The position numbers and the translations under genes were made by a program. From the IMG/VR virus record IMGVR_UViG_3300028840_003967, positions 55,834-75,833 of that record: 20,000 nt of DNA; one strand, written 5' to 3'. Positions within the stretch are counted from its first letter, which is position 1, and the number at the start of each line of letters is the position of its first letter. Shown here piece by piece: positions 1-19,732 of the stretch. The notes below the pieces were generated by a model, which was not told the origin of the DNA, ran no database searches, and saw nothing but the letters and a program-made list of their open reading frames with translations. Source of the stretch: an uncultured virus (IMG/VR IMGVR_UViG_3300028840_003967) (lineage: Duplodnaviria; Heunggongvirae; Uroviricota; Caudoviricetes).

Positions 1-721
1 TCGCGGATAGACTATGGAAAGTCGGATCGGACGGAGTTCCGGCATTATAGAGTTCGCGGACTTCTTCAGCCGTCAACTCAGCGTTCCAGATTGTCGCGCT
101 CGTTGAGAATCCATCGAAGAATCTGCTAAATCCGTCACGGGAACTTATGGCAAGATTCGCCGCCGCTTCGACTATGGTGGCCGTCAAGTTGTCTCCCGTG
201 ATGTTGTTCCGCGTTAGTTCCTTGCCGTCCAAATACAGCTTCACACCTGAAGCCGCGCTGCTTCCGTCATAGGTCACGCACACATGATGCCACAGGCCGT
301 TGTTGACTTCTCTGTAGCCTATGGGAAAATCCACTTCGATCCCGTTCAAGGTATCCGTACTCGTTATGCCAACGACAAAATCGGGATTAGACGGACGGTA
401 AACAAGCGACCAACCTCTCCTTGTTCCTCCGTCCAGCCGCTTGCTCAAAAGAGCGCCGACAGTGGAAAGTTCAAGAGTGCAAAACCAAATGCCGAAAGAA
501 AACGAGTCCAGCCGGTCGAACTGAATCTCTGCCGGATTCCCGATGTCAATCCAGTCGTTGACTCCATCGAATTCAAGAGTCTCTGTCAATGCCAGGGCGG
601 AAGCAACAGGTATGCCCGCGATCAACTTTTCCTGGTCCGTAAGACCACCAGGAAGAGTATCCCCGATAGGAAGTTCCTGCTTCTGTCCAGCAATGACAAC
701 AACCGGCCTTCGAACGGCCAT
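1..721 (-). CDS. LamG/concanavalin-A-like jelly-roll domain virion protein (C-terminus runs off the window start)
   Basis: Not in the ORF track. Manual translation from ATG at 721 (AAGGA RBS upstream) gives MAVRRPVVVIAGQKQELPIGDTL...LEFDGVNDWIDIGN...SFSFGIWF...NNGLWHHVCVTYDGSSAASGVKLYLDG...IWNAELTAEEVRELYN, which are classic LamG_3 motifs. The frame is open to position 1. Confidence 0.88.
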   Translation of the reverse strand, partial: MAVRRPVVVIAGQKQELPIGDTLPGGLTDQEKLIAGIPVASALALTETLEFDGVNDWIDIGNPAEIQFDRLDSFSFGIWFCTLELSTVGALLSKRLDGGTRRGWSLVYRPSNPDFVVGITSTDTLNGIEVDFPIGYREVNNGLWHHVCVTYDGSSAASGVKLYLDGKELTRNNITGDNLTATIVEAAANLAISSRDGFSRFFDGFSTSATIWNAELTAEEVRELYNAGTPSDPTFHSLSA

Positions 722-731
722 GATTCAGTCC

Positions 732-1187
732 TTATACCAGAAGAACGGTGTCGCTGATCTCGATTTCGATCTCGGTGGTGCTGATCGCCTTGCCGAGAAG
801 AATCACGACTTCGCCCGCTCCGGTCGGGGCGACTTCCGTTCGCAATCCCGCCGTCGCCGCCGAAAGACACTGCTTGGCCCCCGGCGTGAGTCCGGTGAAT
901 CCGTCCAGGACGCCATCATGCTGGATGTCTCCGATGGCGGCGGGGGCAATGGACGAACTTCGAACGAACCTGTAGGTCGGATTGGAGGTTCCAAGGGCAT
1001 CCGCCTTGGCCAGATCAACGGAGTTGGCTCCGTTGATGTAGACCACTTGGCCTTTGGAGATCGCTCCCGCGTTTCCATTCGTCATTTGGGAAACGCCGAC
1101 ACCGGTCACGGGTGCATCCAAGGTATCTCCTGCGGGAAGCTCCTGCTTTTGACCCTGAATGACGACAAGAGGTTTTCGCAGCGCCAT
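732..1187 (-). CDS. Putative virion decoration/cement-like protein (DUF2190-like beta fold)
   Basis: AAGGAG RBS. Pattern AISKGQVVYING...VDLAKADA...GLTPGA...LGKAISTTEIEIEI resembles phage DUF2190-like/head-fibre domains. Lies in a structural gene cluster. Confidence 0.6.
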   Translation of the reverse strand: MALRKPLVVIQGQKQELPAGDTLDAPVTGVGVSQMTNGNAGAISKGQVVYINGANSVDLAKADALGTSNPTYRFVRSSSIAPAAIGDIQHDGVLDGFTGLTPGAKQCLSAATAGLRTEVAPTGAGEVVILLGKAISTTEIEIEISDTVLLV

Positions 1188-1198
1188 CTCTCTTCTCC

Positions 1199-1606
1199 TT
1201 ATGCCAAAATGATCGAGGGTTCAATCTTGATCTCCAAAACCTGCGGACTCAAAGCTCTTCCAACTTTCTGAACGATTTGTCCTGTTCCTGTCGGTGGAAC
1301 GGTAGCCATTTTACCGCTCACAAGATCGAGATAGTAGATCGCCATTGCCGACAAAGAAACGGTTCCTGTTATTGGCGTCCAGTCACTCAACTCGAATCTT
1401 CCCGAAAACTGAACTTTCGCGACAAAAGTAGGAGCAGCCCCGGCGACAACAAGCCCTATGGCATTGCGCGTGTTGTTTGCCGATGTGGCCCGCAAAACTC
1501 CTATTCCTGAACTGTCCACGGCGACGACATGACCCTTGATTAGAGAGATAGCGTCCTTGTTCACTCCCTTCAAGAATTCCGTAGGAAGTACGGTCGCTAC
1601 AGCCAT
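1199..1606 (-). CDS. Putative virion decoration protein, paralogue of 732..1187
   Basis: IKGHVVAV...AIGLV...YYLDLVSGKMATVPPTGTGQIVQKVGRALSPQVLEIKIEPSIIL aligns by eye with the C-terminal half of 732..1187. Confidence 0.6.
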   Translation of the reverse strand: MAVATVLPTEFLKGVNKDAISLIKGHVVAVDSSGIGVLRATSANNTRNAIGLVVAGAAPTFVAKVQFSGRFELSDWTPITGTVSLSAMAIYYLDLVSGKMATVPPTGTGQIVQKVGRALSPQVLEIKIEPSIILA

Positions 1607-6763: not shown

Positions 6764-7098
6764 CAGACTTTCATCACCCTGATTGCCGTTACAGCTTTTG
6801 TGTTCCCACAAAGAAGTTCAAGCGTCTCAGGTTGTCGATTCGGTTCCTCGAATTCCAGGTCTTCGCCCGGAATGAGGAAAGGGTACGAAGCATCAAGAAC
6901 AGCTTCGGTCTTCGGCAACGTTCCACCAAGCATTCCAGCTTTCCCAAGCGTATAGTAAACCTTGTCCGAGTTAGTGAGGGGATTCTTGATGATGAAACGA
7001 CGCATGGGACGGCCAAATACAACGATTGATCCATCGTCGTGATTGACATCCACGATGCCACCTTGTTTGTCCGTCAAGTCAAGAGTTGTGACAGCCAT
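6763..7098 (-). CDS. Hypothetical beta-rich phage protein
   Basis: AAGGAG RBS, 111 aa, coupled to the downstream gene. Confidence 0.75.
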   Translation of the reverse strand: MAVTTLDLTDKQGGIVDVNHDDGSIVVFGRPMRRFIIKNPLTNSDKVYYTLGKAGMLGGTLPKTEAVLDASYPFLIPGEDLEFEEPNRQPETLELLCGNTKAVTAIRVMKV

Positions 7099-7110
7099 CT
7101 TTCACACTCC

Positions 7111-7359
7111 TTACAATGGGCTTTGACGGCCACGTTGAATCCGAAACTTCTTGTTGCTGCGTTCGGTGGAGGGACGCGCAGAAAGCGTGTTGTCTCTTCC
7201 GCCTCTCGGCAAAGCGCCTGCCTCTCTTTTGAAAGCACTCTTGGCGCTACCCATGTTGATTGTCACATCGGGAGTATATTTCGCCGAAGACTGCTTTCTC
7301 GTCCGCTTCGCGGTATTCCGTTTCGGTTCACGAGGGCCTTGATTGACTTTCTTCCCCAT
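7111..7359 (-). CDS. Small basic (K/R-rich) hypothetical protein
   Basis: AGGAG RBS. Fits the gap between its neighbours exactly. Confidence 0.7.
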   Translation of the reverse strand: MGKKVNQGPREPKRNTAKRTRKQSSAKYTPDVTINMGSAKSAFKREAGALPRGGRDNTLSARPSTERSNKKFRIQRGRQSPL

Positions 7360-7362
7360 GAT

Positions 7363-7833
7363 TCACACTCTCCTATTCCGAACGCTCCTCGCAAGTCTTT
7401 CATTCAGATTCCCGTGCCGACTTCCCCTTCTTGTGTCACGAGGACGAGCGATCTTTTTTCTGAATGCCTCTTTCTTACGCTCTACCTCGCGGTTTGTTTT
7501 GGCCTGTTCTTCGAGGAATTTCTGACGGCGCTCCAACTCGGAATCCCTTGCGTTTGAGACTGGACTCGGTTGAAGGCTTGAGTTTTGTCTTGCCAAACTT
7601 TCCCCGCCTTGTGCTGATTGCCCGGATTGAACTTGCGATTGCATTTCGCGGAGCCTTAGCGCCTCTTCGATCCGGTACTTTACTCTTTCCTTGCGGTGCT
7701 TTTCCCTTACCAGCCTGTCCTTTGATGGGCTGCTTCTGCCGGGATTGATCCACGCCATCGGCACGGGCTTGTGTTGTGGCGGAAGCGGACTCGGGGAACT
7801 CTTCAGGGGGTCTTCCACGAGGAACCCTTTCAC
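7363..7833 (-). CDS. Possible overlapping-frame basic/coiled-coil protein
   Basis: AAGGA-N5-GTG start inside 7475..7966. Its stop lies 3 nt before the next ATG, so it fills the otherwise empty 7363-7474 gap. Confidence 0.45.
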   Translation of the reverse strand: MKGFLVEDPLKSSPSPLPPQHKPVPMAWINPGRSSPSKDRLVREKHRKERVKYRIEEALRLREMQSQVQSGQSAQGGESLARQNSSLQPSPVSNARDSELERRQKFLEEQAKTNREVERKKEAFRKKIARPRDTRRGSRHGNLNERLARSVRNRRV

Positions 7834-7966
7834 TCAATTCCTTCGCCCGTTTGTAGAACTTCTTGCCGCCAGAAACAAAAGAAGCCCCCAATGCGTCTAG
7901 GGGGATTCCCTGTGGCGCTCTTTCAGCGTTTTGCAGAGCAATGGCATAGTTGATCTTCTTTGCCAT
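7475..7966 (-). CDS. Basic low-complexity hypothetical protein
   Basis: ATG 2 nt after the upstream stop. K/R/G/S-rich and predicted disordered by composition. Confidence 0.6.
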   Translation of the reverse strand: MAKKINYAIALQNAERAPQGIPLDALGASFVSGGKKFYKRAKELSERVPRGRPPEEFPESASATTQARADGVDQSRQKQPIKGQAGKGKAPQGKSKVPDRRGAKAPRNAIASSIRAISTRRGKFGKTKLKPSTESSLKRKGFRVGAPSEIPRRTGQNKPRGRA

Positions 7967-7968
7967 TG

Positions 7969-8259
7969 CTATTTGCTCAAGCGATCAACTCGCGCAGTCT
8001 TGCTCGCGCGGTTCCCACCCTTGCCGCTGTACGGACCACCAATGGCCTTCTGCATAGAAGAGCCTGCACTTCCGCCGTAAGCAGCATTCCGCCGAGCAGT
8101 CACTTTTCTTCCGGTTGGAGACTTCGAATCGCCAGAGCCTGGAACAATGGACTTGCTCTTTCCAGGGCGATCCGTCCCATCTCTCCGGGCACCCTTATGT
8201 ACATCCGCTTGCAGCCCCGAAGAACTCTTCTTGAAGCCCTTGATCCCGCTTCTGGTCAT
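7969..8259 (-). CDS. Small basic G/S/K/R-rich hypothetical protein
   Basis: GGAGGAG-N5-ATG at 8259 (MTRSGIKGFKK...) is preferred over the track start at 8364. Confidence 0.72.
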   Translation of the reverse strand: MTRSGIKGFKKSSSGLQADVHKGARRDGTDRPGKSKSIVPGSGDSKSPTGRKVTARRNAAYGGSAGSSMQKAIGGPYSGKGGNRASKTARVDRLSK

Positions 8260-8261
8260 GG

Positions 8262-8759
8262 CTACTCCTCCTTCTTCTTTTTCTCTGCGCGCATCTCGTG
8301 TGCGCGTTTCTGTATGATCGGGTCTTTCAAAAGCGTTTGAAGCAACGCCGTGTTCTTCACCCATGCGGCCACATCCTGTTCGTGGTTAATGATGTAGCCT
8401 GTGGCGTCGATCTTCTTGCGTTCCTCAAGGATGACTTCAACGAGGAACTTATCGCTGGCGTGTTCGTTGAGGAACTTCCTGTACTTCGGATCGTCAAACA
8501 TACGGCCCATAGTTTGAAGCAGCGTAGAGCCTTTCGAACTCCTCGCTTCCATCTCGAACGGGCCGACTTCTTTTTGTCCGACCATGTTGACGATGAGTTG
8601 ATCCTTCTTCACTCCGACGATTCGGAGCATCCCGTTCACTTCCTTAGGTAACTTCGTAGCGCGAGCGATGTGATGTACTTCTGTTCTCTCAGCCCTCAAG
8701 CAACTCGTACAGAACAGGATCAACACCACCATCGTCAAGGCCGGGATCAAGCGTCTCAA
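8262..8759 (-). CDS. Putative lipoprotein (o-spanin-like position)
   Basis: A TTG at 8759 gives MRRLIPALTMVVLILFCTSC, a basic N-region, hydrophobic core and lipobox-like Cys. It overlaps the 3' end of 8689..8886. The exact start is uncertain. Confidence 0.6.
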   Translation of the reverse strand: MRRLIPALTMVVLILFCTSCLRAERTEVHHIARATKLPKEVNGMLRIVGVKKDQLIVNMVGQKEVGPFEMEARSSKGSTLLQTMGRMFDDPKYRKFLNEHASDKFLVEVILEERKKIDATGYIINHEQDVAAWVKNTALLQTLLKDPIIQKRAHEMRAEKKKKEE

Positions 8760-12831: not shown

Positions 12832-12879
12832 GTGCTAACTCCTTTCATGGCCAGGATTTACATCCTTCCAACATATTCC

Positions 12880-12940
12880 TTGACATTCCTGTGGAATCGG
12901 TCATAATCCTGTATATACAGCGTTTTCGAGGGAACGTCAA
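12880..12940. promoter_or_regulatory. Divergent control region with overlapping promoters and palindromic site
   Basis: Plus strand: TTGACA(12880)-16 nt-CATAAT(12902). Minus strand: TTGACG(12940)-17 nt-TATATA(12917), which is weaker. The palindrome CTGTATATACAG at 12909..12920 lies between them. Confidence 0.6.
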
Positions 12941-13050
12941 TGGAGAAAACACGAAAAAAAATCAGGAGCCGACCTACGACTTGCGATTGGAGCGACTGAG
13001 CGATGGAGGACGCAGAAGACACAGCGGAAAGGATTCTAAATGATGAATGA
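12940..13050 (+). pseudogene. Gene remnant ending in the shared W-helix motif
   Basis: Ends ...EDAEDTAERILNDE-TGA. Restoring one G after CGATGG (about 13006) gives ADLRLAIGATERWEDAEDTAERILNDE. The stop overlaps the ATG at 13047. Confidence 0.4.
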
Positions 13051-13265
13051 ACTGCGGCAAGAAAGACACCGAATAGTCAAACGAATTCCTTGCGAAGACG
13101 GAATACTCACACCATACAAACTTCAAAGGTTACCGATTAGTTTTGTGCGACTCTATTTGAGGAGAACGTATCTTCCCATACGATCTAGCTGCCGAATACT
13201 ACGGAATTAGTGAGTGGAACAAAGCCGTAGAAGCCCTAGAAAGGTTGGACGAAGATGAATCCTAA
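13047..13265 (+). pseudogene. Decayed member of the W-helix gene array
   Basis: The frame reads MNCGKKDTE*SNEFLAKTEYSHHTNFKGYRLVLCDSI*GERIFPYDLAAEYYGISEWNKAVEALERLDEDES*. In-frame stops lie at 13074 (TAG) and 13158 (TGA). Confidence 0.55.
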
Positions 13266-13758
13266 AGACATCAAGATAGGCGACACGCTCACTGCCGGTG
13301 TTCGCGCATTCAAGGTCTTGTTCTTTCTCCCGGATGCCGAAAACGGAATCTTCTTTGTAGCCGCTAAAGTAGGCAAGGATGCTGTTGTAGATGAGAGAGA
13401 AGTATTCCACCGCAATGGACACCATGTAGGCCAATACGATCCGAAAGACTCTTTTGAAACACTCATGGAAGCATACGCCAGGAATTACGGAGAGTACAAA
13501 GCTCTAAACATGGATTACTACAAGCCGGATAAATTCAGCGACACAATGCTTCTATTAGAACAACTCGAAAAAGAAATGTCGAAGGAAGACACGGAAGAAG
13601 AACAGAAGAAAGAATATGACGCCACTTGGATGATACGAAGGCTCATCCTACTCCATGACCAAAAAGAACGGGCGTTCAAAAACGGATTGTTCTACGGTTT
13701 CGCTTTGTGCATTCTCATTTTAGCTTGGCACATCTTTAAGGAGATGATGAATCGATGA
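13255..13758 (+). CDS. Hypothetical protein, SH3-like N-terminus and C-terminal TM helix
   Basis: IKIGDTLTAG.R.F.V...FHRNG N-domain and C-terminal GLFYGFALCILILAWHIF. GAAAGG RBS. Confidence 0.8.
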   Translation: MNPKDIKIGDTLTAGVRAFKVLFFLPDAENGIFFVAAKVGKDAVVDEREVFHRNGHHVGQYDPKDSFETLMEAYARNYGEYKALNMDYYKPDKFSDTMLLLEQLEKEMSKEDTEEEQKKEYDATWMIRRLILLHDQKERAFKNGLFYGFALCILILAWHIFKEMMNR

Positions 13759-14138
13759 ACATTCAACCAACACAGATAAACATCGCGCCAGATGGAGGAC
13801 TCGACGCCGAACCAGATTTTTCTAAACCATCACAATACCAGTTTATGAAATACGGCACTAACAACAACATCAACGATGAACACGGTCTGAGAATTTCAGG
13901 CGAATACACTAAACGAGTGATAGAAGAAACCGTGAGAGAAGTTCTCTTACGACTTAAACCACAAATAGCAGAACTCGTTAAAGAACAAGTGATGGAAGAT
14001 GCACAAATAATTAAGGAAGGTATATCCGAGAAGTTGTTTGAAAAGATGAAGAACTACATCGAAGAATCGAGGGCGGATTGGGAAGAAGGATTACGGGCGG
14101 CTGAAAGAGTTCTGAACGGAGGGGATTCTGGTGAATAG
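13755..14138 (+). CDS. Hypothetical helical protein ending in W-helix motif
   Basis: ATGA-coupled with AAGGAG RBS. C-terminus FEKMKNYIEESRADWEEGLRAAERVL. Confidence 0.82.
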   Translation: MNIQPTQINIAPDGGLDAEPDFSKPSQYQFMKYGTNNNINDEHGLRISGEYTKRVIEETVREVLLRLKPQIAELVKEQVMEDAQIIKEGISEKLFEKMKNYIEESRADWEEGLRAAERVLNGGDSGE

Positions 14139-14481
14139 TACAGATAAAGGAATAAGCGCGTGTGTACAAATCAATCCTGAGTGGAAAGAAGAGTTCAAGA
14201 GAGAAATCCTGAAGGAACTCTTGAATAGTGATCTAAAACTATACGCCGCAATCCGCACGATCCAAGAATATGTTGTAGACGACCTACAAAGAAGAATTCT
14301 TCCACTCATATTCGATAAGAGAATCGAAGAAATCGTGAATCAGTTTTCGGGCGAAATCGCTGAAGAAGCGTTCAAACGGATGAAGAAGTACATAGAGGAA
14401 ACCAGAGCCGATTGGGAAGAGGGTCTTAGAGCCGCCGAAAAAATTCTACGGGAGGAGAACGAAGATGAAAAGACAGATTGA
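14131..14481 (+). CDS. Paralogue of 13755..14138
   Basis: GTG start after GGAGGGG. C-terminus FKRMKKYIEETRADWEEGLRAAEKIL. Confidence 0.82.
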   Translation: MNSTDKGISACVQINPEWKEEFKREILKELLNSDLKLYAAIRTIQEYVVDDLQRRILPLIFDKRIEEIVNQFSGEIAEEAFKRMKKYIEETRADWEEGLRAAEKILREENEDEKTD

Positions 14482-14725
14482 AGCCGATTGGACAACATAC
14501 CTGTTGGATGTCGTTCCAAAAACTGCGGGAAAGACACAAAAAACTGCGGGAAAGACACAAATCCAAGAAACGAAGCGAGCGTTCTTTGCTGGCGCGTTGG
14601 CACATCACGAGTTCATCTTACGCGCCGTGGAAAACAAAAAAGACGAAGAAGTGCAAAAAAAGCTCGATGGCATATTTGAAGAACTGCTAGACTTTCGACA
14701 AGCTGTTTTGGAGGGAAGGCAATGA
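14465..14725 (+). CDS. Conserved-looking small phage protein (W..Y...V.P...Q..ETKRAFFAGA)
   Basis: GGAGGAG RBS. The motif is familiar from uncharacterised phage proteins. Confidence 0.8.
   Translation: MKRQIEADWTTYLLDVVPKTAGKTQKTAGKTQIQETKRAFFAGALAHHEFILRAVENKKDEEVQKKLDGIFEELLDFRQAVLEGRQ
14519..14560 (+). repeat. Perfect 21-bp tandem duplication (KTAGKTQ x2)
   Basis: AAAACTGCGGGAAAGACACAA is repeated twice, in frame. Confidence 0.95.
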
Positions 14726-14913
14726 GGTACAAGGACAGCACCGGACTCGACATCAAAGAAGGCGACTTGGTTCGCTTTCAGGGAAAGTTCTACACGATCA
14801 AGAGGTTCTTTCCAGGAAAGGGAAACATGAATACGGCAGCAATCGAGTTTGAAGAGAAGGAAGTCCACACCACAGAACTACCCGACGAGATGAACGTGGA
14901 CTTGGCAATCTAG
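14722..14913 (+). CDS. Small YopX/SH3-like beta protein
   Basis: KDSTGLDIKEGDLVRF motif (cf. D.NG.EIYEGDIV). ATGA-coupled. Confidence 0.75.
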   Translation: MRYKDSTGLDIKEGDLVRFQGKFYTIKRFFPGKGNMNTAAIEFEEKEVHTTELPDEMNVDLAI

Positions 14914-14923
14914 GAGAAGAACG

Positions 14924-15379
14924 ATGGCAGACGCATCCTTTGCCCAATGGGCGAGAAAGAACACGCCTATCCACGTAGGAGGATTGTATCTTGTCCAACA
15001 AAAGCCTAAGTCAATCGGATGCAAGTATTACCCCGAAAACACAAAGGTAGACGTGTGGATTGCCAAGTCACAACTCCTTGCGGCTGACTACGAAGAAGAA
15101 GGGATAGCCTCAACAGGTGAATCACTGATATACGAATTAGAACACGATCCGAGCGCAGTAATGTTGGACGAGTACATTTGGGTATCCCTTAGCGCATGGT
15201 TGATTCAAAGATTCACATGGCTGGACAAAGACAAAACACCAATGGAAAAGTACAAAGGAGCATTGAGAGTCATTCCCAAAGATCGAAAAAATCCACAGAA
15301 GAAAACATCATGGGAAGACGCAATAGCTTCCCTTGATCGAATCGATAAATTGGACAAGACGCGAAGAAAGGCGAGATGA
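14924..15379 (+). CDS. Hypothetical protein ending in W-helix motif
   Basis: AGGAG RBS. VWIAKSQL...AWLI core and C-terminal SWEDAIASLDRID. Confidence 0.82.
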   Translation: MADASFAQWARKNTPIHVGGLYLVQQKPKSIGCKYYPENTKVDVWIAKSQLLAADYEEEGIASTGESLIYELEHDPSAVMLDEYIWVSLSAWLIQRFTWLDKDKTPMEKYKGALRVIPKDRKNPQKKTSWEDAIASLDRIDKLDKTRRKAR

Positions 15380-15380
15380 A

Positions 15381-15698
15381 ATGCCTCTCGAACTAGGCAA
15401 TGTGTACAAAGCAAAGAACGGGAAAGAGTTTCATGTCTTCAAAAAAGTAAGAGCAGACATCGCCGCTAATGCTTGCGACATCTTTTTCGCGCACGAGTAT
15501 GTCACCTTAAATGGCTTCAATTTCGAAATGTATACGGAAATCACATACAAGTTCAACGAAGAGGGGAAATTTTATGGTGCGTTTGTGAAGGCAACAAACA
15601 AAGGCTTTTGTGTACGACAACCTTATAAGGATTGGGATTTGATTCACCCTCCTCTTTGGGAAGACGCCGTGAAAGCCATAGAAAGGTTAGACCAATGA
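15381..15698 (+). CDS. SH3-like phage protein ending in W-helix motif
   Basis: ATG at 15381 after GAAAGG. LELGNVYKAKNGKEF...FNEEGKFY...DWDLI, then LWEDAVKAIERLDQ. Confidence 0.82.
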   Translation: MPLELGNVYKAKNGKEFHVFKKVRADIAANACDIFFAHEYVTLNGFNFEMYTEITYKFNEEGKFYGAFVKATNKGFCVRQPYKDWDLIHPPLWEDAVKAIERLDQ

Positions 15699-16060
15699 TG
15701 ATCGTAGGTGACATCTACGTCACGAATTGTGGAAGAGTCTTCAGGATGGTCAAAAAGTCTTCAGCATGGTTTCCCTTTAAGGGACGCCACAGAAAGTATT
15801 ATGTCTACGACGCATTTGAACTATACAGGAATAACACAACCGGAGTGTTTGGACAAATAGACCAAGTTACGTTTCGATTCAACGCAGACGGAGTTTTCAT
15901 GGATGCGTTTTCGACAGGCCATTCTCATCGCAGTCTTCATCAAAGCGATTCTGTTGGAGGAGGATTGGACATAGTGACTTACGAAAACGAGTGGTCACGT
16001 GTTGTGGCCGCGTTCAAAAGATTGGAGAAAGCCGATGAAGAAAAAACTAAAGCCGTTTAA
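15695..16060 (+). CDS. Paralogue of 15381..15698 ending in W-helix motif
   Basis: ATGA-coupled. IVGDIYVTNCGRVF...FNADGVFM...LDIV, then EWSRVVAAFKRLE. Confidence 0.82.
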   Translation: MMIVGDIYVTNCGRVFRMVKKSSAWFPFKGRHRKYYVYDAFELYRNNTTGVFGQIDQVTFRFNADGVFMDAFSTGHSHRSLHQSDSVGGGLDIVTYENEWSRVVAAFKRLEKADEEKTKAV

Positions 16061-16283: not shown

Positions 16284-16773
16284 AATAACCTACAGATCAG
16301 CCGTCATATCCGACGACAAAAAATATAGGTACACACTTCAACGCGCGTGGAAAAAAGGTAAAAAAGGAAGCGTGCTTTTCATTCTTCTCAACCCATCCAC
16401 GGCGGATGAAGAAAAAGACGATCCCACTATTCGGAGAGGCATTGGCTTTGCCTACAGATGGGGATATTCAAGAGTATGTTTTTGCAATCTCTTCGCGCGC
16501 CGAACCAAAGACCCTAATGTCCTGAAAAGAACAAGAAAGCCTGTCGGACGCCATAATGACGAATGGATAATAAACAGGGCTTTGATTTCGAGCCGAATTG
16601 TGGTGGCATGGGGTGCTAATGGAGGACACCAAAACAGGGATTCAGAAGTTCTGTGCATGTTGGAGCAACACAGATACGATTTCAAGTTGTACTGTTTCGG
16701 GAAAACGATGATGGGCTACCCAAAGCACATTCTCTATCTCCCGAATGACGCGAAGTTGGTTCGGTACATGTAA
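16273..16773 (+). CDS. DUF1643 family protein
   Basis: SAVISDDKKYRYTLQRAW...FILLNPSTAD...DDPTIRR...NLFA...IVVAWGANG...G.PKH.LY. AAGGAG RBS, ATG at 16273. Confidence 0.93.
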   Translation: MLPEITYRSAVISDDKKYRYTLQRAWKKGKKGSVLFILLNPSTADEEKDDPTIRRGIGFAYRWGYSRVCFCNLFARRTKDPNVLKRTRKPVGRHNDEWIINRALISSRIVVAWGANGGHQNRDSEVLCMLEQHRYDFKLYCFGKTMMGYPKHILYLPNDAKLVRYM

Positions 16774-19237: not shown

Positions 19238-19732
19238 CTAGCGCGCGGCCTTGCGCTTTGCCTTTTTCTTGCTCGTCTTCTTGCTCGTCTTCTTGCTCGT
19301 CTTCTTCTTGGCCTTTTTCTTGCTCGTCTTCTTGCTCGTCTTCTTCTTGGCCTTTTTCTTGCTCATCTTTTCCTTTTCCTCATCTCTCTTGTACTTCGCT
19401 TCGGATACGATGGTGTATTTTGCGAGGGGGGAAAGATCGTAAATCGTTTTCGGACGTAGGTCCGCGACCGCATCGACAAGCGCGGCCTTGCAATCCTTCG
19501 GTCGGGCCTTTTCCCCCGCCGGAAGGAAAAGAGGAACACAAGTAAGATGGAACGACCCATCTTTCGATACCACTCCGAGGATTCGCATATACTTCCGCTT
19601 TTGAACGTACCGGACGCAACGGGGCAACTCCTCCTGAAGCCTTTTGACGCCTTTTACGTCGCCGATTGCGTTCGCATGATCCGCCAGCTTTTTTGAAAAA
19701 CCTTTGACAGTCCACTTGATTAGCGCACTCAT
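19238..19732 (-). CDS. Hypothetical protein with histone-H1-like Lys-rich C-terminal tail
   Basis: GGAGGAAAG upstream. The tail SKKKAKKKTSKKTSKKKAKKKTSKKTSKKTSKKKAKRKAAR is encoded by 12-bp and 39-bp repeats. Confidence 0.8.
   Translation of the reverse strand: MSALIKWTVKGFSKKLADHANAIGDVKGVKRLQEELPRCVRYVQKRKYMRILGVVSKDGSFHLTCVPLFLPAGEKARPKDCKAALVDAVADLRPKTIYDLSPLAKYTIVSEAKYKRDEEKEKMSKKKAKKKTSKKTSKKKAKKKTSKKTSKKTSKKKAKRKAAR

Follow-up and report, generated by a model that had tools for sequence, protein, structure and literature searches.

Why should a run of small phage genes, whose products do not resemble each other, end in the same Trp-led helix? This question is raised by a 20,000-nucleotide stretch of DNA from an uncultured phage (the window, taken at its full length), in which the original prediction had placed six Trp-led C-terminal motifs behind a promoter and had proposed that they represent a portable tag. 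A six-frame regular-expression search of the whole 75,833-bp contig recovered exactly these six 12-mers, with Trp codons at 13215, 14079, 14413, 15311, 15657, and 15992, all on the + strand and 13-22 codons before a stop, which confirms their positions.

Genome Context

The window is the end of a siphovirus-like phage genome of ~95 kb, for which a composite genome of 95,493 bp and a further 19.7 kb of the same phage (L039) were used in addition to the contig. All assemblies and runs of this phage are near-identical, and hence offer no population variation for measuring selection. An HK97-type capsid is indicated by the major head protein (phrog_1357). The + strand block that holds the tagged genes is headed by a putative sigma-70-like promoter at 12880..12907 (+ strand; TTGACA, a 16-nt spacer, and CATAAT), which is located inside a divergent intergenic region and is, as a consensus match, the best of the whole window (11 of 12 positions).

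Tagged and Untagged Genes of the Array

At 13003..13050 (+ strand) there is a possible degenerate remnant of the tag (MEDAEDTAERIL), reading MEDAEDTAERILNDE followed by a stop, whose E-R codons (GAAAGG) are found just 5' of an ATG at 13040. With a hidden Markov model (HMM) of all nine tags described below, it reaches a weak 7.0 bits and ranks 11 of 3,388 segments, so the frameshifted remnant that had been noticed near position 13004 is suggestive only. The highest-scoring tag (31.0 bits) is WNKAVEALERLD (13215-13250), followed by EDES and a stop, at the end of a frame of 34 codons (psi, 13161..13265, + strand) that is devoid of ATG, GTG, or TTG. In-frame stops are located upstream of this tag at 13044, 13074, and 13158, where the TGA opens frame 0. 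The locus is identical in assemblies L001, L051, and L082, and L100 is 99.97% identical; psi is either a pseudogene or a sequence reached by recoding. The region upstream of psi bears no similarity to gene D (see below), as 265 of 500 shuffles score as high.

The next gene, g13255 (13255..13758, + strand, 167 aa), is an untagged member of the array, called as an open reading frame with a Shine-Dalgarno site and ending in a hydrophobic C-terminal segment. It has no Pfam or PHROG match and no tag match, and the internal tag variant FSDTMLLLEQLE that had been suggested in it was detected by no model. It is followed by the paralogues B1 (13755..14138, + strand, 127 aa, predicted to be all-helical), with tag WEEGLRAAERVL at 14079-14114 and tail NGGDSGE, and B2 (14131..14481, + strand, 116 aa), with tag WEEGLRAAEKIL at 14413-14448 and tail REENEDEKTD. 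These proteins match at 33% over 120 aa (blastp, E 4.9e-16), with 10/12 identical residues in the tag and 31/89 in the body. An AlphaFold2 (AF2) model of B1, of low confidence (pLDDT 43), predicts helices at residues 27-36, 42-66, 69-89, and 92-120, so that the tag would form the terminal part of a single long helix instead of a tethered peptide. Two further untagged open reading frames come next, g14465 (14465..14725, + strand, 86 aa) and g14722 (14722..14913, + strand, 63 aa), neither of which matches a Pfam or PHROG family.

Gene C (14924..15379, + strand, 151 aa) holds tag WEDAIASLDRID at 15311-15346 and tail KLDKTRRKAR; its Atlas model has a pLDDT of 0.45, and a homologue search returned C alone. 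D (15381..15698, + strand, 105 aa) consists of a beta-rich body and a terminal helix that carries tag WEDAVKAIERLD at 15657-15692 and a single-residue tail, Q. Its AF2 model (five strands and a helix at 93-104) is of low confidence, with a pLDDT of 42, while the Atlas model, with a pLDDT of 0.68, has small beta-barrel neighbours at TM 0.43-0.58, among which DUF1653 (TM 0.47) and the CarD RID (TM 0.43-0.44) are leads only. Its full-length paralogue E (15695..16060, + strand, 121 aa) ends in tag WSRVVAAFKRLE at 15992-16027 and tail KADEEKTKAV. In the comparison with SH3-like small beta-barrels and DUF1653, no Pfam match was obtained for D or E, and a HMMER search against 1.84 billion representatives returned only D, E, and one junk repeat.

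Tags Outside the Window

Trained on the six tags of the window and scanned over the rest of the genome, an unseen 19.7 kb, an HMM yielded three new C-terminal tags. They belong to three adjacent open reading frames, F1-F3 (L039 2190..3162, minus strand), which occupy ranks 1-3 of 442 segments (15.0, 14.9, and 10.5 bits; next 3.7) and in which the match is located 0-2 residues from the end of the frame. As this trio is encoded ~7 kb from the window carriers, the tags are not confined to the first 3.2 kb after the promoter, as had been thought. The F proteins are Cys-rich and putatively RING-like, with five invariant Cys columns (C12, C29, C35, C38, and C62 of F1) that fit a CxxC..C..CxxC..CxxC layout. 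Their Pfam matches are all below the cut-offs (Zn_ribbon_TOP3B, 20.6 bits versus 27; zf-C3HC4_2, 14 versus 27), and the match to the RNF4 RING in the PDB has an E value of 0.18. The F trio is found among DNA-modification genes, while the window carriers follow the putative sigma-70-like promoter and are encoded on the opposite strand from the structural genes. Altogether, the carriers form two translationally coupled, converging gene runs within ~10 kb of one phage genome.

Sequence Pattern of the Tag

The tag follows the consensus W-[EDNS]-[EDKR]-[AGV]-[VLI]-x-[AS]-[LAIF]-[EKDG]-[RKQ]-[LIV]-[DEL]. Position 1 is Trp, position 4 small, and position 5 aliphatic in all nine tags, A7 is present in eight, and R10 in seven (with a Lys in one more). 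With a hydrophobic moment of 0.50-0.78, the 12-mer corresponds to a terminal amphipathic helix whose hydrophobic face comprises W1, the small residue at 4, the aliphatic residue at 5, A7, position 8, and L11. R10 is placed at 180 degrees from W1, and this residue and the acidic residues at 2, 3, 9, and 12, all off the hydrophobic face, are also kept across unrelated bodies. The net charge of the tag is negative in six of the nine, zero in two, and positive in one.

Every carrier holds one such helix and shares a layout of small body, linker, 12-residue amphipathic helix, and variable charged tail. The linker is short and polar or contains proline in C, D, F2, and F3 (4/9), with the proline at most nine residues upstream of the helix. 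The residue that precedes the Trp is acidic or hydroxylated in 7/9 carriers, as befits a helix N-cap. All nine tags end 1-10 residues short of the stop codon, and the tails, with charges from -4 to +5, are unrelated in sequence.

One Helix on Unrelated Bodies

This helix alone is common to the nine carriers, whose bodies are of four or more types: the helical B1/B2, C, the beta-rich D/E, and the Cys-rich, RING-like F1-F3. When D/E, F, B, and C were compared by hhalign, just 14-24 tag columns aligned (A4 versus A6, 14 columns, P 2.8e-4; A3 versus A6, 24 columns, P 1.7e-3), and the likeness of C to D/E (A4 versus C) is restricted to the last 23 columns (P 4.8e-4). Matches between families by blastp were limited to 11-24 residues and had E values of 0.008 or more. 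The structural part of the claim of a portable C-terminal tag on dissimilar bodies is therefore upheld by tag-only alignment and differing body types, and has gained a fourth body type. Moreover, in four of five paralogue pairs conservation is higher in the tag than in the body (0.83 v 0.35, 0.42 v 0.25, 0.58 v 0.14, and 0.42 v 0.23), and in the fifth the two are equal (0.25 v 0.27), while the D and F2 tags, from different families, share 7/12 residues, as many as tags within a family.

Two statistical approaches address this resemblance. In a model-free comparison of the C-terminal 24-mers of 148 genes, with all but the carrier-carrier pairs among 10,878 as background, 15 of the 23 cross-family carrier pairs exceeded the 99th percentile and 21 the 95th (Mann-Whitney p = 3e-16, for carriers partly chosen for their resemblance). 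In the second, HMMs built with one body family left out were scanned over the 2,119 stop-to-stop segments of the composite genome (95,493 bp). The F trio was recovered at ranks 1-3 (15.2, 15.0, and 10.6 bits; next 6.4), as were D, E, and psi (21.1, 14.7, and 10.8 bits; next 8.4), and C ranked first marginally (7.7 versus 7.5 bits). The B pair, at ranks 3 and 8 (6.1 and 4.0 bits), was not separated from noise, but it is supported by the tail-pair test, in which B1-F2 scores 35 and B1-D 34 versus a background 99th percentile of 23. Nothing else in the genome exceeds 7.3 bits with the nine-tag HMM.

The tag is conserved at the level of the protein and not of the DNA, since its codons differ synonymously or conservatively, with only 15-28 of 36 nt identical between tags and exact shared runs of 11 nt or less.

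Occurrence Beyond This Phage

The search of related viral contigs extended to five phage contigs, in which 0 of 4,433 segments scored above 6.1 bits, and the libraries searched yielded neither a relative for any carrier nor any relative with the tag. In metagenomes, the tag pattern gave 84 matches in 80 fetched loci, of which eight rows came from this same phage; the majority of the remainder lie deep inside long proteins, about two dozen of them in a single LapB-like TPR setting. The 12-mer sequence itself is of a generic, TPR-like helical type that is frequent within long TPR proteins, while its C-terminal placement on small non-TPR proteins was observed in this phage only. The statement that this was not recognised as a described system has to be qualified as regards the sequence of the 12-mer. 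In the PDB, the tag profile has non-significant matches to LapB (E 0.049; another LapB chain, 0.87) and to the C-terminal helix of the Akt PH domain (E 0.049).

A Putative Docking Label

Because both the hydrophobic face and the off-face residues are kept across unrelated bodies, the constraint on the tag would come from something that the carriers have in common, the simplest common factor being one partner protein. We give a probability of roughly 45% to the tag being a modular docking helix, an address label for one such partner. The helix would be received in a groove of this protein, either of the phage or of the host, and the phage would thereby gather small effector domains of several unrelated kinds at a single site. 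Among the predicted proteins of the phage, neither Pfam nor PHROG profiles revealed a TPR or another obvious receptor. Part of the conservation at positions 9-12 could have another origin, as at five junctions the E-R-L-[DE] codons double as the Shine-Dalgarno site of the gene that follows (GAAAGG and TTGGAG).

If the tag is a docking label, its reader would be a hub that organises the otherwise unannotatable ORFan proteins of this phage, its identification would assign a function to all nine uncharacterised carriers together, and the helix, a natural and very short peptide, would serve to recruit cargo of any kind, in the way that the T4 CTS and encapsulin peptides have been employed. A more tentative extension is that of a phage-encoded recruitment system, in which one reader, phage or host, might collect at least four unrelated effector classes, as one case of a wider habit of uncultured phages of using genome-specific C-terminal helix labels. 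In the literature searched, no described principle of C-terminal helix labels organising the small-protein repertoires of phages was found.

The convergence of unrelated proteins on a single hub through one C-terminal motif is known from the clamp-binding ends of the T4 and RB69 polymerases, T4 gp33 and gp55, and the acidic tip of SSB. Those replication docking tails are extended peptides at the extreme C-terminus, whereas the tag is a helix followed by a variable tail, and none of the genes of this phage was recognised as encoding a clamp. A further parallel is offered by the bacterial FxSxx-COOH precursors, which are described as small, fast-diverging proteins with a conserved C-terminal peptide, linked to vWA-MoxR systems, in which a zincin peptidase releases the peptide and TPR-bearing proteins are encoded alongside the processing system (PMC7159879). 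They resemble the carriers in joining a variable body to a conserved C-terminal peptide; we infer a TPR-peptide contact in these systems. No zincin peptidase, MoxR, or radical-SAM gene was found in the phage, and one vWA match is sub-threshold (E 0.0036).

Alternative Explanations

Rather than docking on a separate reader, the tags might bind each other in homo- or hetero-oligomeric bundles, so that heads which are small and bind weakly (Zn finger, beta-barrel, or helical) would be joined in multivalent or mixed complexes. The amphipathic moment, small residues at 4 and 7 that permit close packing, the co-transcription and translational coupling of the carriers in runs, and a D-F2 tag identity at the within-family level are all in keeping with this proposal. 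We regard it as unlikely, given that 12 residues are short for a stable coiled coil and that R10 and the acidic residues are conserved off the hydrophobic face.

It is likewise improbable that the helix caps its own protein, W-x-x-A-phi-x-A-phi-x-R-L covering a hydrophobic surface of each body with no common partner and being kept in each family through convergence or old domain accretion, as do the helices of TPRs and the Trp helix at the C-terminus of PH domains. The TPR helix consensus is aromatic-x-x-A-phi-x-x-phi-x-x-[AL], a signature to which the tag conforms, and the form W-E-x-A-phi-x-A-phi-E-R-L, seen in TPR/LapB/YciM proteins, makes up most of the metagenome matches. As most of these matches are internal to long proteins, similar helices can arise without a shared reader, and the weak LapB and Akt matches and the continuation of a long predicted helix by the B tag agree with a capping role. 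Nevertheless, TPRs are tandem 34-residue hairpins, whereas the tag is a single C-terminal helix on small proteins, and no TPR family was detected for the window carriers (E <= 0.01) or F1-F3 (E <= 0.1). Capping is also at odds with the retention of R10 (7/9) and of the acidic residues on both Cys-rich finger and beta-barrel bodies, with the Pro or polar linkers ahead of the helix in C, D, F2, and F3, and with the clustering of nine helices within ~10 kb, all close to the C-terminus, in a genome with no other match above 7.3 bits and with none above 6.1 bits in five related contigs.

The T4 capsid-targeting sequence (CTS), of ~10 residues, is removed by the prohead protease. Bacterial microcompartment (BMC) encapsulation peptides and encapsulin cargo-loading peptides are joined to unrelated cargo by a poorly conserved linker. 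By analogy, the helix might be a C-terminal counterpart of these signals that binds the scaffold or the inner capsid surface, the carriers being packaged and injected with the DNA, although we consider this very improbable. The T-even internal proteins are likewise diverse bodies with one tag, described as fast-evolving small phage proteins that share one terminal peptide addressing one place (PMC3012670), and the phage has an HK97-type capsid. As in T4, only the tag is shared among diverse small proteins (the 14-24 hhalign columns here), but the CTS is N-terminal and directs to the scaffolding core, while the present tag, a helix of 12 residues, is C-terminal and is followed by a variable tail. 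Encapsulation peptides are similarly terminal amphipathic helices or peptides, unrelated in sequence to the tag, and among the predicted proteins, Pfam and PHROG profiles identified the major head protein of the phage but no BMC shell or encapsulin family. Against packaging are also the positions of the carriers, opposite the structural genes or among DNA-modification genes, the acidic character of the tag, and the absence from it of any feature resembling a protease site.

Slighter still are the chances of a degron recognised by a protease or adaptor of host or phage origin, through which a set of early proteins would be removed together. A C-terminal tag common to otherwise unrelated short proteins would suit this role, but the residues after the helix vary in length and charge; consequently, the free C-terminus is not conserved, unlike in ssrA-type tags, and an ssrA/SspB-type degron or tether fits poorly. 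A membrane-targeting amphipathic helix of the MinD/FtsA type, which carries a net positive charge, was also considered, and fits poorly because the tags are mostly acidic.

Finally, chance or a DNA-level artefact of repeated Shine-Dalgarno regions or a recombination boundary, to which the five junctions with overlapping ribosome-binding sites might point, is hardly credible, as W1-A7 are upstream of any Shine-Dalgarno site, the site of the next gene lies downstream of the tag, within the tail in B1, B2, and C and beyond the stop codon in F3, E is uncoupled from what follows by a 125-nt gap, and the short exact DNA runs and the leave-out and tail-pair statistics argue against it.

A C-terminal helix shared by unrelated small proteins

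Small phage proteins with at least four body types end in one and the same Trp-led amphipathic helix of 12 residues (the tag), which is conserved at the protein level, usually more strongly than the bodies that bear it, and is placed strictly at the C-terminus. The original prediction had listed six tags in the window, and a regular-expression search of all six contig frames returned exactly six matches, at the same sites and on the + strand. Five belong to the ORFs B1 (13755..14138), B2 (14131..14481), C (14924..15379), D (15381..15698) and E (15695..16060), and the sixth, at 13215, to a start-less frame designated psi (13161..13265). All of them lie 13-22 codons before a stop. Codon differences among them are synonymous or conservative, the DNA identity between tags is 15-28 of 36 nt, and the longest exact run shared by two tags, 30 nt on either side included, does not exceed 11 nt. 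Because of this low identity and these short runs, the tag is a protein motif and not a DNA repeat.

The psi tag is the most consensus-like (31 bits). It is carried by a frame of 34 codons without a start codon, with in-frame stops upstream at 13044, 13074 and 13158, and four other assemblies have the identical sequence. The pseudogene first proposed is kept together with a second reading: psi may be either a recent pseudogene or a sequence that is translated through recoding from ORF 13040..13210, which overlaps it. This ORF encodes 56 aa, has a good Shine-Dalgarno site and overlaps the psi tag frame (window 13040-13262); speculatively, a +1 shift near TTG AGG AGA (about 13155-13163) would fuse the two. 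A decayed D-like gene was rejected as the origin of psi, since the upstream frame has no similarity to D. A frameshifted remnant, proposed at 13,003, gave a weak match (7.0 bits), and an internal variant of the tag, FSDTMLLLEQLE, was not supported. Among the untagged members of the array, g14465 (window 14465-14725) contains a tandem PKTAGKTQ repeat in two copies, and its N-terminal IEADW is similar to RADW, which comes before the tags in B1 and B2.

Anatomy of the tag

Nine tags were compared, the six of the window and those of three ORFs, F1-F3, encoded elsewhere in the same phage. Counting from the Trp, they share W at position 1 (9/9), a small residue (A/G/V) at position 4 (9/9), an aliphatic one at position 5 (9/9), A at position 7 (8/9, with S in one), L/A/F/I at position 8 (9/9), R at position 10 (7/9, with K in one and Q in one), L/I/V at position 11 (9/9) and D/E at position 12 (7/9), and positions 2, 3 and 9 are acidic in most carriers. 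On a helical wheel, W1 and positions 4, 5, 7, 8 and 11 share one face, and R10 lies opposite W1. The residue preceding the Trp is E, D, S or T in seven of the nine, which fits a helix N-cap according to established helix-capping rules, and a proline is found at most nine residues upstream of the tag in C, D, F2 and F3. Past the 12-mer, the tails comprise 1-10 residues with no common sequence and a charge of -4 to +5. Conservation of the tag exceeds that of the body in four of five paralogue pairs.

At five junctions (window 13240-13254, 15680-15694 and 13027-13039; L039, a locus of the same phage, 2846-2860 and 2523-2540), the codons for the E-R-L-[DE] part of the tag (GAAAGG, TTGGAG) also constitute the Shine-Dalgarno site of the next overlapping gene. 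This overlap is a remaining confounder, as it may help to conserve positions 9-12; W1-A7 are left unexplained by it, as are the carriers in which the downstream Shine-Dalgarno site lies past the tag.

Bodies of the carriers

B1 and B2 are paralogues (33% identity over 120 aa, E 5e-16), and so are D and E from end to end (26-27%). Comparison by blastp across families yields only short matches of 11-24 residues, the best of them between C and D (E 0.008), and C resembles D and E through the tag alone. The same result was obtained by profile-profile comparison, in which the tag alone was aligned between D/E and F (14 columns, P 2.8e-4), B and F (24 columns, P 1.7e-3) and D/E and C (23 columns, P 4.8e-4). 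By eye, C and D also share a KG..P..KD stretch ahead of the Trp; this likeness was discarded, as hhalign did not return that alignment.

The AF2 models of the D/E and B alignments are poor (pLDDT 42 and 43, respectively), and their secondary structure alone was used: D shows five strands followed by a helix (93-104), and B1 four helices, the final one (92-120) including the tag. The neighbours of an ESM Atlas model of D (pLDDT 0.68) are small beta-barrel phage proteins, DUF1653 and CarD RID, at TM 0.43-0.58, and are leads only. C has no usable structure model. The accepted body types number at least four, namely helical, beta-rich, Cys-rich finger and one of undefined fold. With cross-family alignment confined to the tag, and with different secondary structures in D and B1, the carriers are not full-length homologues of one family, and the portable tag on dissimilar bodies that had been proposed is supported.

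The phage genome and the tags outside the window

The viral contig is 75,833 bp long, with the window as its final 20 kb, and family scans assign it to a siphovirus-like phage with a 2,011-aa tape measure protein, a major head protein (phrog_1357), a portal and a large terminase; a family A DNA polymerase, a primase, a DnaB-like helicase and a RecA/UvsX-like recombinase; and a 7-deazaguanine module of QueC, QueD/PTPS, GTP cyclohydrolase I and a QueF-like protein. Nearly all large genes lie on the minus strand. Transcription diverges at window 12,832-12,940, and a sigma-70-like promoter match at 12,880-12,907 (TTGACA, 16 nt, CATAAT; 11/12), the best in the whole window, heads a + strand block of small, tightly packed genes with good Shine-Dalgarno sites and ATGA-type overlaps, which extends to about 19.3-19.5 kb. 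The same phage has another IMG/VR record, G006 (76,077 bp), which overlaps the contig at a 19,660-base offset and contributes a further 19.66 kb. Its position 1 corresponds to window-equivalent 20,310, as mapped through a 92.7-kb metagenome contig, and this placement gives a genome of about 95 kb; homologue searches also found carriers on contigs of up to 96 kb. One further IMG/VR contig (L001) has 107 extra bases at window ~11107 (L001 1077-1183) and is otherwise 99.97-100% identical. Amid the replication genes, an 81-aa ORF (L003 9320..9562, minus strand) has a sub-threshold match to a HicA toxin (E 3.5e-5, 24.3 bits; cut-off 27).

When the six-tag profile was used to search other records, weaker matches appeared in G006, in three adjacent minus-strand ORFs: F1 (L039 2842..3162), F2 (L039 2519..2845) and F3 (L039 2190..2567), whose C-terminal ends are KWNEALNALKRLESL, TWDEAVDAAERLEDLE and EWDKVVRAFGQLDTI, respectively. 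Among the 442 segments of the unseen 19.66 kb, these carriers occupy ranks 1-3 (15.0, 14.9 and 10.5 bits; next 3.7), and the matches stop 0-2 residues short of the frame end. F1-F3 are translationally coupled paralogues with five invariant Cys columns, fitting a CxxC..C..CxxC..CxxC layout, and their zinc-ribbon, FYVE and RING matches are all below thresholds (RNF4 RING in the PDB, E 0.18). Together with an SNase-like nuclease (L039 1740..2177) and a 69-aa ORF, they form the five genes that separate two minus-strand ORFs of a DpdA/queuine-tRNA-ribosyltransferase-like gene (phrog_887; L039 3159..4442 and 446..1516, covering profile positions 8-297 and 353-479). Terminator-like hairpins at 19240-19257 (+) and 19826-19799 (-) face each other where the + block and the F1-F3 unit converge.

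Statistical support

The six-tag HMM gives its own tags 27-33 bits, whereas the next best of the 1,677 stop-to-stop segments has 6.3. This self-scoring is circular, and leave-out tests were therefore run; with six tags they are low in power, as they missed even E, a full-length paralogue of D. With nine tags, whole body families were left out and searched for in a 95,493-bp composite genome (2,119 segments). The F trio was recovered at ranks 1, 2 and 3 (15.2, 15.0 and 10.6 bits; next best 6.4), as were D, E and psi (21.1, 14.7 and 10.8 bits; next best 8.4). C ranked first by a marginal difference (7.7 against 7.5 bits), and B1 and B2, at ranks 3 and 8 (6.1 and 4.0 bits), were inseparable from noise. 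Two further candidates, L039 4911..5393 (WETVLNSLYNLA) and g17697 (WGEALAELGAAL), were dropped because they are not among the best 22 rows of the nine-tag HMM (lowest 3.6 bits).

In a model-free test, the C-terminal 24-mers of 148 predicted genes were compared with one another (10,878 pairs), each pair being scored by its best ungapped BLOSUM62 10-mer match; the background pairs had a mean of 9.2, an sd of 4.8 and a 99th percentile of 23. Cross-family carrier pairs exceeded the 99th percentile in 15 of 23 cases and the 95th in 21 of 23 (Mann-Whitney p = 3e-16, for carriers partly picked by resemblance). The B pair was brought in by its scores of 35 (B1-F2) and 34 (B1-D).

Occurrence elsewhere

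Full-text searches of the literature found no description of such a tag, and none of the carriers reaches the threshold of a Pfam or PHROG family. In 5.8 billion clusters, word-indexed searches with C, B1/B2 and D/E returned only the queries themselves, HMMER over 1.84 billion representatives found D, E and one junk repeat, and tblastn against cultured phages gave no match for F2 and a best E of 0.6 for D. The B-pair profile matched no genome contig, and a related-locus search with a further alignment (A2) recovered the same phage only. The region shows no or almost no differences between all the assemblies and runs in which it occurs, and three sequencing runs (X8-X10) yielded low-depth identical fragments with no variants.

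Five related phages found through the major head protein (59%, 46% and 43% identity among them) share replication and structural genes with this phage and lack both the window genes and the tag; no segment of the 4,433 in their contigs exceeded 6.1 bits. A separate negative scan of these relatives is uninformative by itself, but its positive control was detected later. A Candidatus Saccharibacteria MAG includes, by binning, a 7.2-kb contig that encodes a head protein 82% identical to that of this phage; neither the tag nor a DUF1643 gene was seen in this MAG. As binning of short phage contigs is unreliable, this host is a weak lead at best.

A degenerate DNA pattern of the tag found, in IMG/VR, the same phage and one internal match in an ESFKE-repeat protein, which was rejected as chance; two further patterns matched C-termini of the same phage only. 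That protein (>770 aa), from a 70,145-bp viral contig with direct terminal repeats (L045/L059), carries an ESFKE/ESLKE-type linker ~11 times between short segments and looks like a string of small modules. Among metagenome contigs, 107 stretches match the pattern, and the 80 examined hold 84 matches. Eight of these are the same phage, on two contigs, and most others lie deep within long proteins, about two dozen in a single context (...YEQE..WEKAI.AG.RLE...), taken to be LapB/YciM-type TPR repeats; LapB chains also appear among the weak PDB matches of the tag profile. In these 80 stretches, just one other match (L066) comes within 10 residues of the frame end in a closed frame of at least 100 aa; it is the tag-like end of a 172-codon open frame (166-aa ORF), on a 1.4-kb contig, and was set aside as chance. 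On these matches, the tag sequence is that of a generic TPR-like helix. Its peculiarity is its placement: within about 10 kb it occurs nine times, each time as the only copy in a small non-TPR protein and at the C-terminus.

Possible function of the tag

Since residues on either face of the helix are conserved between unrelated bodies, often with a linker upstream, one external partner that reads the helix is the simplest common constraint on the carriers. The tag would then be a docking label, a tentative reading to which we assign a probability of about 0.45. Family scans found no TPR or other receptor candidate among the phage proteins, and a vWA-MoxR system was rejected as the reader, with a sub-threshold vWA match and no MoxR. 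The resemblance to a generic TPR-like helix could also be read as that of an intramolecular capping helix with no shared reader, which is unlikely, and association of the tags with one another, as an oligomerisation helix, is equally doubtful. A packaging signal is very improbable, and a degron just as much so. The variable tails make an ssrA-type degron a poor fit, and the mostly acidic tags do the same for a membrane-binding helix.

A second C-terminal motif

A second C-terminal motif occurs in the same phage: a Lys/Arg-rich stretch and then, as the last residues of the protein, [GSP]-F-[AS]-F (in one case with GD after it). It ends 6-7 ORFs, all without a family match and all on the minus strand outside the window: L039 5311..5766, 6918..7274, 7584..8387 and the frame 8197..8736, and G006 13604..14032, 14616..15440 and the frame 16364..16693. 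The motif is absent from the five related phages, and no hub for it was identified. Replication proteins are known to carry aromatic C-terminal docking tails, which this motif recalls.
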